Shown: piece after piece, positions 16,556-25,191 of the stretch
How the letters are laid out: the number at the start of each line of letters is the position of its first letter
Position numbering within the stretch: the first letter of the stretch is position 1
Assembly: GCA_039621445.1 (NCBI GenBank)
Contig: CP154954.1
Span: 28,923,837-28,987,836 of the forward strand
Direction of reading: 5' to 3'
DNA length: 64,000 nt
DNA from: Euglena gracilis
Taxonomy: Eukaryota
Program-made: the position numbers and the translations under genes
Notes under the pieces: model-generated
Told to the model about the DNA's origin: nothing
What the model saw: only the letters and a program-made list of their open reading frames with translations
The model's database searches: none

Positions 16556-16625
16556 CTTGTACACGAGCTTTGATCTGCATCTCCTTCATATATCGGTCAG
16601 TTGCCATACGAGCGCCAATCCAGTT
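16556..16625 (-). CDS. TylF-like exon ([23 protein letters not shown])
   Basis: Matches the post-DDY helix (R.A.D.Y). The 5' junction is supported by the CTGGCTTT/AAAGTCAG stem. Confidence 0.8.
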
Positions 16626-22600: not shown

Positions 22601-25191
22601 TTTGGAGAAGAAAGCAAAAATAGAAGGGGAAGAGGGTCAAAATTAGTCCACTTCCTGCAAGCAGCCAACCTAAAGTCGAAAATATGTGGGGGATTTCTGC
22701 CCCAACAATTGTCCAGGTCAGTTTGGCATGCACTCAAATTAGACGCCTCCCGCAGTATCATCAGAGAACATGTTTCCAGCAATGCAAAAACCAAAGAGTC
22801 CCAAACTCTACTCAACAGGTCTGTATCCCTATTCTTCTTGGTGCTGCTGAAGCTGCACGTAATAGGCTTTGGCAAGGCAACCCCACAGCACAAACCGCCT
22901 CGCCACACGCCTGTTTCGATGAAATCGCCCGGCACACCGCGGAAGATGGCGTCTTCAGTCTGAGACAGCCCTAGCAGCCCGGTGACCTTTTTGAGACACA
23001 TTTGCTTGCGAGAGCATGCCGAATCGCTGACAATCAGACCAAAAATATTGGCCAGCATAATCCTTTGCCCCATTCAGCACATTCCCCATTTTTCTTTCAA
23101 ACCCCCAGCAAGGGGGTCAGCCACCCTTCTTTGCTTGCCATTGTCAAAGGAACCGACTGGGGTTACTTTTGGTCATTGCATTTTGCTGGAAGACCCAGAG
23201 GGCTAATCGTGAAATCCATTGGGAGCTCAGCATGAGCTGATTTTTGAGCTTTTTGCAGTTTCAATTTCTTCAGACCTGGTTCAAACCCAGCTAACCAGCA
23301 GCCTTTTCCAGCCAGCCCAAATTTTCCAGCCTTTGAGCATGGTGTAAACGCGATGCCCTGGTCCTGTGCCATGTGGTCTAGGAAGAGGTCCAGCAGAAAA
23401 TTTCTTGTGTGAAGCTCCGCGAAAAAATAGTAAATGGTCAAGAATGAGACTGGTTCAGGGGAGGTTCCTTACCCCCCCCCACCTGTAATGGCTGAACTCC
23501 CACAGCCCCTGGCGGGGTGGCGATGAGTTACGCTGCTGGAAGCCAGCCACAGGATCTGGGGATTCTGAACGGTGGTGGAGTGTGGCAGGCAACCAGGACC
23601 GCCTCACATGAGCAGCGATTGCACGTTACGCAGGCGGCGGAAGCCACACCCTGAGCCACAATCATTCACACAGAAAGCAGGGGAAGGAAAGCCAGCAACG
23701 TCGAAAAAAAATTTTTCTCCGCCTTGTCCAAGACTGGACTAACAGCTGTCACTTGCCCAAATTAGAGTGGCCGAATTCCATAACTTTGCCCCTTGTCTAG
23801 AACGAAATCCCTTGAAAGATGTTCCACAAGGGGAGTTGGAAAGGTACCAGGGAGAAATGATGAAATGATCGGCAACATGATAATAATAAAAATGATGGAG
23901 AATCGGGTGGACCGCATCGTATTTGCTTCGCGTCACTTTCCGCAACTGTGAGGGGGGGGAAGCAGACAACTGATTGCTACCCCATTATTCCATCACCTAA
24001 GGGGGCTGTGATGGACCGCATATCCCCCTGCCGTATGGCTCCAATGTTTGCAGACGACATGAAAAAAGATCTCCTGTCTCCATCAACCCAGAAGTGGCTG
24101 GCCATTTCACTAGACACACTGGGCTAGCCTCCCCCCCCCCAGGGGGAGGGGCAGGGGTTCCCCGACAAGGAAAATATTCCTCTGGCTGCGTACCGAGGTG
24201 GAAATAGGAGTCTTAATGAGAGAGGTTTTTTTTTGCCAGATTTTGATCTATTCCTGAGATACCTGGGTTCAACCACAGAGGAGTGCTTCCTGAAAATGGG
24301 ATCGCGGGTTTCTGGTGGTTTTGGTGTCGAAATGCTTGCCATCAAAAGCGTGCCAGGAAACTTTGGTGTGAACTGTTTTGCTGAAAATTTGGTGCAAACT
24401 CATCCACAAATTGATCCAAAATTTGCGTTAGGCCAATTTCAATATCCCCCAAGACCCCAAGGGATATCACATTCACAGGAAGGAGTTTAAACTGTGGTTG
24501 GAAGAATAACACTTTCTGGCCATAGTCTACACTTTTGTAAATAATATACCACGTAAATAAACCCATTTATATGTCTTTTCTCCTCCAGGAAAACTTCGAG
24601 AAATTGGTGCTGACGAGCTGCTTCAAATTGAACTCTTGACTCCAAAGCTTGAGGAACTCAAGGGCCAGCATTCGCTCACCCACGACGCTGGGGATCAGGA
24701 TAACCGCTTTTTGGGGTCCAAAAAATGGGGGAACAAAGGGGGACTCAACCCAACACAGACGGGGGGGGGGGGGACACCAGGTCACCAATCAGTTTTAATG
24801 GTATTACTCATCAAGGGAGGAAAGTCAGAGGGAGTCCACGTGTCGCCTGCTGACGCTTTCAAAAGCCACGGGGAGTGAACATGCGACTCGAAGGGTGCTT
24901 GCATCGGGGCTGGAAACATTTGCAATGCCATACCCCAGAGCACACCAAAATGACGGCAATGGTAATGGCACGGGAGTTCACAGAGCACAACCCCCCCAGA
25001 AATGGACTCTGATCAAGGGTGATGTGGAGCTGGCAACCAGACAAATTGTGGCCCAGAACAGCCATAGACAAGACGTACGGCATGCTCTTCGGGGGCCACC
25101 AACCGCCATCCATCACGCCCTTGAAAGCCTGAACGTTGTAGCCCAGGACGGACTTCATCACCAGACGCAAAGCGGTGCGCAGGACAGTCAT
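16556..25191 (-). CDS. TylF/MycF-family (macrocin-type) SAM-dependent O-methyltransferase, at least 10 exons with nonconventional introns; N- and C-termini unresolved
   Basis: Exons ~25191-25060, 23645-~23610, ~22956-22890, 21080-20987, 20531-20496, 20277-20201, 19160-19089, 18712-18647, 18188-18136 and 16625-16556 join in frame: [157 protein letters not shown]. All TylF motifs appear in order. Confidence 0.9.
18136..18188 (-). CDS. TylF-like exon ([17 protein letters not shown])
   Basis: Signature LYP.LSPGG.VIVDDY motif. Confidence 0.93.
18647..18712 (-). CDS. TylF-like exon ([21 protein letters not shown])
   Basis: Metal-binding motif RLDGDLYES. Confidence 0.93.
19089..19160 (-). CDS. TylF-like exon ([23 protein letters not shown])
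   Basis: Matches the LL...V.F..G.F..TLP motif. Confidence 0.9.
20201..20277 (-). CDS. TylF-like exon ([25 protein letters not shown])
   Basis: Matches the SL..V..(N/S)F..YGL motif. Confidence 0.85.
20496..20531 (-). CDS. TylF-like 36-nt exon (PLSTWAVDKKH), tentative
   Basis: In frame, with imperfect stems on both flanking introns. Lies in a variable loop of the family. Confidence 0.55.
20987..21080 (-). CDS. TylF-like exon ([30 protein letters not shown])
   Basis: Signature R.[10 protein letters not shown] motif. Confidence 0.93.
21343..21412 (+). repeat. (GTT)n/(GTC)n microsatellite in an intron
   Basis: Direct reading of the sequence. Confidence 0.9.
21816..22518. mobile_element. TA-TSD MITE in a TylF-like gene intron
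   Basis: TIR CTGTCATAGGAAAAAATAACATCCGG / CCGGATGGTATTTTTTCCTATGACAG flanked by TA, with subterminal AAATAACATC repeats. Confidence 0.85.
22890..22956 (-). CDS. TylF-like exon ([22 protein letters not shown])
   Basis: Signature SAM-binding motif [14 protein letters not shown]. Confidence 0.93.
23610..23645 (-). CDS. TylF-like exon ([12 protein letters not shown])
   Basis: Matches the G..RL.N motif. The 3' boundary is ambiguous by a few nt (23605-23611). Confidence 0.8.
25060..25191 (-). CDS. TylF-like exon ([31 protein letters not shown]); 5' boundary uncertain
   Basis: Resembles the TylF N-terminal LLK.SL / WP..TM segment. The 3' junction is supported by a 12-bp intron stem. Confidence 0.75.

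Follow-up and report, generated by a model that had tools for sequence, protein, structure and literature searches.

The minus strand of the window (the whole 64,000-nt stretch of Euglena gracilis DNA analysed, to whose positions all coordinates refer) carries a real, expressed and intron-rich gene. With a probability of about 0.88 it is a nuclear gene spanning at least 27087 to 12167, which encodes a TylF-type (macrocin-O-methyltransferase-like) enzyme and in which all 12 detected introns are euglenid nonconventional introns. Its junctions are seen in RNA, the reading frame is open across them, and the intron ends form helices that share a common register and show biased end nucleotides. Since RNA confirms the junctions that had been proposed from the DNA letters, the gene offers a clear-cut instance of introns of an established kind, not of a new one; the intron class, the pairing of intron nucleotide +4 with -6, the rule for the spacers and the view that conservation lies in complementarity rather than in sequence are all already in print, and the gene displays no new kind of biology.

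RNA joints and the gene they assemble

Contigs from three runs (X3, X5 and X1, presumed RNA) and raw reads of a fourth (X21, RNA on record), the four runs coming from four separate studies, were aligned to positions 16400-25300 of the window. Nine minus-strand joints are found inside 16556..25191; given in plus coordinates as last and first exon base these are 16625>18136, 18188>18647, 18712>19089 (slide 1), 19160>20201, 20268>20490 (slide 3), 20525>20993, 21078>22888 (slide 2), 22956>23610 and 23644>25059 (slide 2). Every one of the nine is present in one contig of each of the three contig runs, at a depth of 108-326, and is crossed by X21 reads (7, 4, 6, 6, 3, 4, 5, 4 and 2 in ascending coordinate order); an unspliced piece, 20259-20512, which covers I5, occurs in X1 at a depth of 5.5. 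Three more introns (I0, I10 and I11) lie beyond both ends of 16556..25191 and are placed less firmly than the nine direct joints, by 30-nt loose ends of contigs and, for I11, by a 12-nt match. The 30-nt loose end beyond 25162 (X3, X5, X1) has an exact, unique match at 27058..27087, in frame with the next exon; 18 of 30 letters of the loose end at 16563 match 12795-12812 only, which points to I10; and a unique 12-nt match together with homology suggests I11, the least certain intron of the set. An 81-nt loose end implies 63 nt in the last detected exon, where an in-frame stop lies 33 codons past the exon start unless a further intron intervenes.

Table 1. Exons and introns of the gene in transcript order (window positions). 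Intron entries give the terminal dinucleotides, the trinucleotides at +4..+6/-8..-6 and the terminal helix.
Feature	Position	Strand	Details and evidence
Upstream exon, 3' end	27058..27087	-	only these 30 nt verified
Intron I0, 1,895 nt	25163..27057	-	AG..CT; CGG/TTG; 6-pair helix at +4/-6
Exon	25060..25162	-	contig X3 covers 25059-25162; tblastn of relatives matches 25161-25063
Intron I1, 1,414 nt, slidable by 2	23646..25059	-	GT..GT; CTG/CAG; 13-pair helix; 3 contig runs and 2 reads
Exon, 12 residues	23610..23645	-	RNA joints and tblastn
Intron I2, 653 nt, no slide	22957..23609	-	AT..CT; helix from +4/-5 (or +5/-6); 3 contig runs and 4 reads; a GTGAG..CAG look-alike, 2 and 3 nt inward of the true ends, is not used
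Exon, 23 residues	22890..22956	-	TylF profile positions 83-107
Intron I3, 1,809 nt, slidable by 2	21081..22889	-	GC..CC; GTG/TGC; 7-pair helix with 3 G-U pairs; contains a nested TA-flanked inverted-repeat element
Exon	20993..21080	-	TylF profile positions 108-136
Intron I4, 467 nt, no slide	20526..20992	-	AC..CT; CAA/TTG; 11-pair helix; 3 contig runs and 4 reads
Short exon (STWAVDKKHHD)	20492..20525	-	RNA joints, frame, tblastn
Intron I5, 221 nt, slidable by 3	20271..20491	-	GG..CT; CGT/ACG; 5-pair helix; joint 20268>20490
Exon	20201..20270	-	RNA joints and tblastn
Intron I6, 1,040 nt, no slide	19161..20200	-	AC..TC; CAG/CTG (sole canonical motif); 10-pair helix; 6 reads
Exon	19089..19160	-	TylF profile positions 170-191
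Intron I7, 376 nt, slidable by 1	18713..19088	-	AA..CT; GTC/GAC; 9-pair helix
Exon (RLDGDLYES)	18647..18712	-	TylF profile positions 192-211
Intron I8, 458 nt, no slide	18189..18646	-	TA..CC; CGG/CCG; 6-pair helix
Exon, 11 residues	18136..18188	-	TylF profile positions 213-230
Intron I9, 1,510 nt, no slide	16626..18135	-	GA..CA; CTG/CAG; 8-pair helix; 7 reads
Exon	16563..16625	-	loose end at 16563 in X3, X5, X1; tblastn 16625-16560
Intron I10, 3,750 nt	12813..16562	-	GT..AC; CAA/TTG; 12-pair helix
18-nt micro-exon (IYPVFH)	12795..12812	-	loose-end match, frame
Intron I11, 565 nt	12230..12794	-	AC..CT; CAT/ATG; 5-pair helix; probable (12-nt match)
Last detected exon, start (GTGERILGMWFQKP...)	12167..12229	-	12-nt match; tblastn 12229-12188

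The original prediction, which placed a gene at 16556..25191 with exclusively non-GT-AG, end-paired introns, is borne out in this respect by all 12 introns found. The six introns that it listed are all recovered in RNA, four exactly and two within the 2-nt slide of direct repeats: 18135-16626, 18646-18189 and 20200-19161 agree to the base and admit no slide, 19088-18713 equals its joint at zero shift (a shift of 1 nt being allowed), and 22889-21081 and 25059-23646 are each one of the three positions that 2-nt direct repeats allow (the lower-case letters in its intron ends are intronic, namely nucleotides +1..+3 and -5..-1). A terminal AG is lacking in all six, as are GT-AG borders at any slide; one of them (20200-19161) has CAG/CTG and two have CTG/CAG. 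The RNA mapping that had been suggested as a check thus finds the exons joined at the proposed junctions and no GT-AG junctions. Three introns inside the span, 23609-22957, 20992-20526 and 20491-20271, were missed, and neither proposed limit of the gene holds: the presumed start ATG at 25191 lies inside I0 and is absent from the mRNA, in which the exon begins at 25162 after a 1,895-nt intron, and at the other limit, set at 16556, the mRNA leaves at 16563 via two further introns.

When the exons are joined they give a single frame of 254 codons without a stop, all 12 joints keeping it open, and the translation matches both the TylF profile and the sequences of three relatives from end to end. 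Pfam PF05711 has collinear matches in five exon-bearing frames (profile positions in Table 1), and the profile segments abut exactly at the RNA joints. Scored exon frame by frame and not on the whole spliced protein, the matches reach 26, 22.5, 14.1, 16.9 and 17.4 bits, i.e. one frame (26 bits) above the gathering cut-off of 23. Membership in the TylF / macrocin-O-methyltransferase family is suggested by matches that cover profile positions 83-230 and by the PF05711 domain of the closest proteins, although each exon alone is near or below the cut-off and the N-terminal third is outside the matched region. These nearest proteins are eukprot EG_transcript_21251, EG_transcript_12198 and EG_transcript_16352, with 71-72% identity to the spliced protein; protein searches for an exact match to the exon sequence of the gene returned none identical, only relatives at 71-72% overall. 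Together with the intron type, the names of these relatives suggest a euglenid, probably a Euglena species, as host. With the three relatives as tblastn queries the alignments break at the same places as the RNA joints, and paralogues have VFPVYH or LYPVYH at the micro-exon position. For the 5' end the same searches yield weak and mutually inconsistent candidates only: a 7-residue match at 27618-27598, an open frame at 27282-27058 and, better resembling an exon, a piece at 38939-38805. Rfam gave no matches in the whole window.

Pairing and sequence at the intron ends

Borders of the GT/GC-AG or AT-AC type are present in none of the 12 introns at any slide that the RNA allows, which distinguishes them from U2 and U12 spliceosomal introns. 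A contiguous helix of at least five pairs (G-U allowed) starts at +4/-6 in 11 of the 12, and in seven of the eight non-slidable ones, as against a chance expectation of 0.24 of 12 derived from 20,000 random pseudo-introns per intron, matched in length and slide freedom. Direct repeats of 1-3 nt make the borders of four introns slidable, the other eight having no direct repeat; the register of these four was chosen among the allowed slides and not observed, a choice that the null model is equally allowed. Other registers occur in at most three introns each, except for the diagonal of the same helix. Folding of the intron ends, also suggested beforehand, reveals stable terminal helices: the 20-nt ends cofold with a mean energy of -18.2 kcal/mol vs -7.4 (sd 4.0) in 2,000 pseudo-introns. 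The +4/-6 register, predicted to be necessary for joining the protein in frame, accordingly applies to 11 of the 12 introns and fails in I2 (23609-22957), where +4 pairs with -5 and the unpaired spacers are 3/4 (or 4/5) nt, compared with 3/5 in the other 11.

Pairing is accompanied by sequence preferences. Among the 11 in-register introns nine close the helix at +4:-6 with C:G and two with G:C, none with A:U or G:U, and C is absent from +5 in all 11. The borders favor pyrimidine-purine steps, with a pyrimidine at the upstream exon end in 8/12, a purine at intron +1 in 11/12, a pyrimidine at intron -1 in 11/12 and, again in 11/12, a purine as the first base of the downstream exon; where the four slidable introns are concerned these counts vary with the slide selected. 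I8 alone has a pyrimidine both at +1 and at the start of the downstream exon (C). The remark that several upstream exons end in T describes six of the 12, a weak excess (binomial at 25% T, P ~0.05), and CAG/CTG at +4..+6/-8..-6 is found in one of the 12 (I6). The proposal that pairing register rather than sequence defines the splice sites therefore survives in part: the register holds in 11/12, but the end-nucleotide, closing-pair and +5 biases and the shifted I2 speak against it, as do sequence constraints beyond pairing described for published knock-ins (PMC12501133). The inference itself has been in print since 2016 (PMC4770533).

Published rules and the removal of the introns

Euglenid nonconventional introns as modeled by Milanowski et al. 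(PMC3935182, PMC4770533) have variable non-GT-AG borders, as here, pairing of +4, +5, +6 with -8, -7, -6, purines at intron +1 and the downstream exon start, pyrimidines at the upstream exon end and intron -1, and short direct repeats that make some borders slidable; each feature is found here in at least 11 of the 12 introns, except the upstream-exon pyrimidine (8/12). For 55 euglenid introns the 2016 paper (PMC4770533) reports the +4..+6/-8..-6 pairing and the same end preferences, with complementarity kept "rather than sequence". However, CAG/CTG is found in 33/55 of those introns and in 1/12 here, where one intron is also register-shifted.

The 3-nt 5' and 5-6-nt 3' spacers were defined genetically in 2025 (Nomura et al., PMC12501133), by knock-ins that needed these spacers, pairing beyond the motif and an exon-start purine; among compensatory changes tested at the second position CTG-CAG alone kept splicing ability. 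The resulting noncanonical splicing code, 5'-N3-CDG-/-CH'G-N5-6 followed across the border by R-exon, is present in 61.2% of E. agilis nonconventional introns, and Datasets S7-S8 and Figs S10-S11 of the same paper, which list the motif variants tested, may already cover some of the trinucleotides seen here. In the present gene the 3-nt 5' spacer fits 12/12 introns if the I2 helix is taken to start at +4, and the 5-nt 3' spacer fits 11/12; the exon-start purine is present in 11/12 (I8 has C), +5 is free of C, and two motif variants described in the paper, CTG/CAG and CGG/CCG, recur. The C-D-G/C-H'-G trinucleotides are found in 4/12 (I1, I6, I8 and I9), none with N6 (-9..-7), so that the full code is seen only in I1, I6 and I9, and in I8 minus the purine. 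Outside the trinucleotide and spacer rules are 8/12, with CAA/TTG (twice), CAT/ATG, CGT/ACG, GTC/GAC, GTG/TGC, CGG/TTG and the 4-nt 3' spacer of I2. Since the code accounts for 61.2% of the E. agilis introns such outliers are to be expected; the strict published rule does not fully describe these eight.

On the favored reading both ends of each intron form a helix, the 5' cut falls 3 nt upstream and the 3' cut 5 nt downstream of it (4 nt in one intron), both usually at a pyrimidine-purine step, and the exons are then joined. By analogy with the literature a dedicated, probably non-spliceosomal, machinery may measure fixed distances from the helix end in the manner of a ruler, and the intron may be released as a circle, later than conventional introns; circular excision is cited in the Discussion of PMC12501133 and in the review PMC11282704. 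Among the joints listed here none goes back on itself at intron ends, as a circle would, which is no evidence either way.

An ordinary or modified spliceosome that tolerates noncanonical ends, the terminal helix merely bringing these together, is an improbable alternative. Spliceosomal removal of noncanonical, transposon-derived introns is described in other lineages (PMC11282704), a tolerant spliceosome has been proposed for some tunicates and dinoflagellates, and spliceosome dependence in E. gracilis is still to be verified experimentally according to PMC11170887. However, GT/GC-AG ends are lacking at every slide, the GT..AG look-alike near the I2 ends that might seem to favor a spliceosome is bypassed by 2 and 3 nt, the cut sites track a fixed distance from the helix and not a sequence motif, and the published spacer mutants (PMC12501133) behave as a ruler would predict. 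Considerably less probable is removal of the segments from DNA, by transposon-like excision in some cells, with the joined form existing also as DNA. The inverted-repeat, MITE-like intron ends are in its favor, and a MITE origin of such introns has been proposed (PMC3935182), but the cuts fall beyond the inverted repeats, at distances of 3 and 5 nt, with no matching 8-nt duplication, each of the 12 removals is exact and preserves the frame, and the unspliced form appears in RNA contigs at low depth. The review PMC11282704, the only source checked for the 8-nt duplication idea, makes no mention of hAT. The duplication was considered because the 3+5 removed nucleotides would equal an 8-bp duplication; as a target-site duplication split 5+3 across the junctions it matches at 31/96 positions vs 27.3 (sd 4.6) when permuted (P=0.25). 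Hairpins and direct repeats are known causes of template switching, and strong hairpins at the intron ends with 1-3-nt direct repeats in 4/12 might suggest that the joints arose artefactually during reverse transcription or assembly, the enzyme having skipped across such features, but this is scarcely credible for the same joints in four runs of four studies, at depths far above the ~5 of the unspliced piece, with 8/12 introns free of direct repeats and 12/12 joints keeping frame through a protein collinear with its family.

Removal directed by the terminal helix would have known parallels: in bulge-helix-bulge (tRNA-splicing endonuclease) and IRE1-type splicing RNA structure and not a spliceosomal consensus sets the sites, as it may here, and the intron leaves as a circle or a linear molecule without a lariat. 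In contrast to these, the helix here lies wholly within the intron, with the cut sites in unpaired tails outside it. Exon-exon pairing of the bulge-helix-bulge kind shows no excess (best helix mean 3.58 vs 3.65 in controls, sd 1.30); since one exon flank does not pair with the other, there is neither a bulge-helix-bulge nor a pair of stem-loops.

Significance for euglenid splicing

The eight introns without the published code are still spliced in vivo, and most retain the offsets of 3 and 5 nt, closure of the helix by G:C or C:G and cuts at pyrimidine-purine steps. It is conceivable, though on balance doubtful, that the nonconventional machinery works purely as a ruler that measures structure and requires no more than a stable helix with a strong closing pair. 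If so, the published sequence code would describe the commonest helix, perhaps ancestral and transposon-derived, and not a requirement, and introns with the GTC/GAC of I7 or the CAT/ATG of I11 would splice in the EgGSL2 knock-in assay. The six of six proposed junctions that RNA confirms indicate that nonconventional splice sites can be placed to the base by reading sequence only. The gene moreover provides a natural test set, 12 RNA-supported nonconventional introns of which eight are outside the 2025 code and one is register-shifted, that is suited to the published knock-in assay for asking how far sequence matters beyond pairing.

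Splice joints and extent of the methyltransferase gene

Short open stretches with TylF-type methyltransferase motifs lie on the minus strand, and RNA mapping on 16400-25300 with contig sets from different studies (X3, X5 and X1, presumed RNA) and the raw RNA-seq run X21 (RNA on record) gives nine sequence-skipping joints that recur in all four runs. Each joint is carried by one contig per contig run, at depths of 132 (X3), 108-181 (X5) and 326 (X1); an unspliced piece over 20259-20512 has a depth of 5.5 in X1.

Joints of the minus-strand gene within 16400-25300, in plus-strand coordinates
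Joint	Slide possible (nt)	X21 junction reads
16625>18136	none	7
18188>18647	none	4
18712>19089	1	6
19160>20201	none	6
20268>20490	3	3
20525>20993	none	4
21078>22888	2	5
22956>23610	none	4
23644>25059	2	2

The observation behind the original prediction is thus confirmed, although its gene limits are wrong and its list of introns is incomplete. All six introns that it listed are found in RNA, three exactly with no slide possible, 19088-18713 as the unshifted placement of a joint slidable by 1 nt, and two as one of three positions allowed by 2-nt direct repeats; three further introns lie within its span at 23609-22957, 20992-20526 and 20491-20271.

Joined by coordinates, the exons form a single frame of 254 codons with no stop, the other two frames being stop-rich. 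Five exon-bearing frames match Pfam PF05711 (TylF) at 26, 22.5, 14.1, 16.9 and 17.4 bits (cut-off 23), and the profile positions matched (83-107, 108-136, 170-191, 192-211 and 213-230) run in collinear order and meet at the RNA joints. A database search with the peptide of one exon returned eukprot:EG_transcript_21251, _12198 and _16352, all with PF05711 and each 71-72% identical to the spliced product, and tblastn matches of these relatives are interrupted at the RNA joints; searches with the exon peptide found no identical protein. The host is accordingly taken to be a euglenid, probably a Euglena.

The transcript passes both ends of the predicted span. An X3 contig of 1,040 nt overhangs 25162 by 307 nt and 16563 by 81 nt. 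The 30 loose-end letters past 25162 match 27058-27087, unique in the search; 25163-27057 is therefore an intron (I0), within which the predicted ATG at 25191 falls. The 30 letters past 16563 have no match as one piece; the 18 nearest the junction match only 12795-12812 and the other 12 only 12218-12229, so that a micro-exon of 18 nt sits between introns of 3,750 and 565 nt. Relatives read alike across the micro-exon (KAR/VFPVYH/APGEE... versus KAR/IYPVFH/GTGE... in the gene). Three of the resulting 12 introns (I0, I10 and I11) are known from contig loose ends only, and I11 is the least secure.

Further upstream on the minus strand, an exon-like piece at 38805-38939 (…CPLAFSPSMELPRGLTCLL) matches residues 52-98 of the relative P0004 (E=0.001), a better match than the open frame directly upstream of 27058 gives. 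It may belong to the gene as a far-upstream exon, implying an intron of ~11.7 kb, or alternatively be the remnant of a second TylF-like copy. A 7-residue stretch at 27598-27618 (minus strand, FDLPMCS), matching the relatives' N-terminal FDLP.C motif, is too short for trust, and its placement conflicts with this candidate exon. A 10-nt tandem repeat occupies ~27625-27680, upstream of the 27.1-kb exon.

Repeats and other RNA signals

The region has a neutral base composition (0.46-0.50 GC per 2-kb window), and homopolymer G and C runs are evident. Those within introns (17051-17070, 18474-18491, 19416-19433) draw many partly fitting X21 reads and also give 'opposite strands' joints, e.g. 17053/18474 with 29 reads; these look like low-complexity artefacts. 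Intron interiors at 23231-23527, 21746-22636 and 16400-17290 have RNA contig depth at least that of the exons (maximum 436) with many loose ends into unrelated sequence, and are probably dispersed repeats transcribed elsewhere rather than retained introns. A trinucleotide microsatellite in I3 (21337-21418, GTC/GTT on the plus strand) was treated as a repeat and skipped in RNA mapping.

Also inside I3, at 21814-22520, lies an element of ~703 bp that has TA on both flanks and ends in inverted repeats of 42 nt, 98% complementary to each other; RNA depth over it is high, as expected of a repeat expressed elsewhere. A predicted protein from another public contig, P0001, crosses the site without the element, at 95% identity over read-through intron sequence; the element looks like a polymorphic TA-duplicating MITE, presumably of Tc1/mariner type.

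Mismatches to the window at 21016 (A>G) and 21069 (T>C), in exon 20993-21080, occur in X5, X1 and most X21 reads (4/5 and 4/6) and not in X3; they are strain or allele differences. A single low-depth X5 contig (depth 3.85, 6 mismatches) joins 18906 to 20120, skipping 18907-20119, which is GT..AG on the plus strand, antisense to the gene; the skipped part may be a conventional intron in an antisense transcript, or the contig may come from a diverged copy.

Pairing register and nucleotides at the intron ends

GT/GC-AG or AT-AC ends are absent from all 12 introns, whichever of the RNA-permitted slides is chosen. The original prediction had intron nucleotide +4 (from the 5' end) pairing with -6 (from the 3' end), its lower-case letters being intron +1 to +3 and -5 to -1, and in 11/12 introns at least five contiguous pairs (G-U allowed) start exactly there, with helix lengths of 6, 13, 7, 11, 5, 10, 9, 6, 8, 12 and 5. 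The helix is present in 7/8 non-slidable introns, where there is no choice of placement; random pseudo-introns matched in length and slide freedom give an expectation of 0.24/12, and no cell of the register matrix off the helix's own diagonal exceeds 3/12. Cofolding the two 20-nt ends bears out the pairing, with a mean of -18.2 kcal/mol versus -7.4 (sd 4.0) in 2,000 pseudo-introns and 9/12 introns past the controls' 5th percentile. The exception is I2, with a long helix from +4/-5 (or from +5/-6 with a terminal T:A open); a GTGAG...CAG look-alike lies 2 and 3 nt inside its true ends and is not used by the RNA.

The +4 to +6/-8 to -6 trinucleotides of the 11 in-register introns are CGG/TTG, CTG/CAG, GTG/TGC, CAA/TTG, CGT/ACG, CAG/CTG, GTC/GAC, CGG/CCG, CTG/CAG, CAA/TTG and CAT/ATG, with CAG/CTG in one intron only, as had been noted. 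The closing +4:-6 pair is C:G in nine, G:C in two and never weak, and C is absent from +5. A purine at intron +1, a pyrimidine at intron -1 and a purine as first base of the downstream exon are each found in 11/12, and a pyrimidine at the upstream exon end in 8/12 (T in 6), counts that vary with the chosen slide in the four slidable introns; the eight fixed introns give 7/8, 7/8, 7/8 and 4/8, respectively. The +4/-6 register thus holds in 11 introns, but 'rather than sequence' is not borne out as stated, since closing pair, +5 and end nucleotides are constrained.

Published euglenid introns and a proposed ruler model

All of these end features agree with what has been published on euglenid nonconventional introns. 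Among 55 introns, pairing is invariable at +5,+6/-8,-7 and lacking at +4/-6 in a single one, with CAG/CTG in 33, a purine at +1 in 51 and at the downstream exon start in 55, and a pyrimidine at -1 and as last base of the upstream exon in 49 each (PMC4770533); the same terminal pairing is reported genome-wide in E. gracilis (PMC11170887). In E. agilis 71.8% of introns are nonconventional, and knock-in experiments show that a 5' spacer of exactly 3 nt is required, that a 3' spacer of 5 nt is functional, with +1 tolerated and -1 reducing transcript to ~20% of wild type, that pairing past the motif is required and that an exon-start purine is preferred (PMC12501133). CGG/CCG, CGG/CTG and CTG/CAG were functional, and among the compensatory second-position changes tested in that paper only CTG-CAG kept splicing. 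Its 2025 code, N3-CDG/CH'G-N5-6 followed by R, fits 61.2% of nonconventional introns; here 3/12 fit fully and 4/12 without the purine rule, the others belonging to the minority for which that paper has no explanation, and I2 is similar to its '3' -1' variant, which was weakly spliced.

A ruler model suits the junction data, with cuts that would fall at fixed distances of 3 and 5 nt outside the helix of the intron's own ends, at Y/R steps; for the enzymes and for a circular intron product the model would draw on the literature, in which circular excision is cited (PMC11282704, PMC3935182, PMC12501133). A MITE origin with TSD-like repeats has been proposed (PMC3935182, PMC11282704); the idea that the 3+5 nt removed are a single copy of a target-site duplication of 8 nt is not supported for this gene (31/96 matches versus 27.3 expected, P=0.25). 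Pairing between the two exon flanks is no better than in controls (mean best helix 3.58 versus 3.65), which rules out a bulge-helix-bulge substrate.

The interpretation offered in the original prediction thus finds partial support, and the idea at its core has been published before. Natural introns that depart from the 2025 code, verified by RNA and all in one gene, may be useful as ready test cases.
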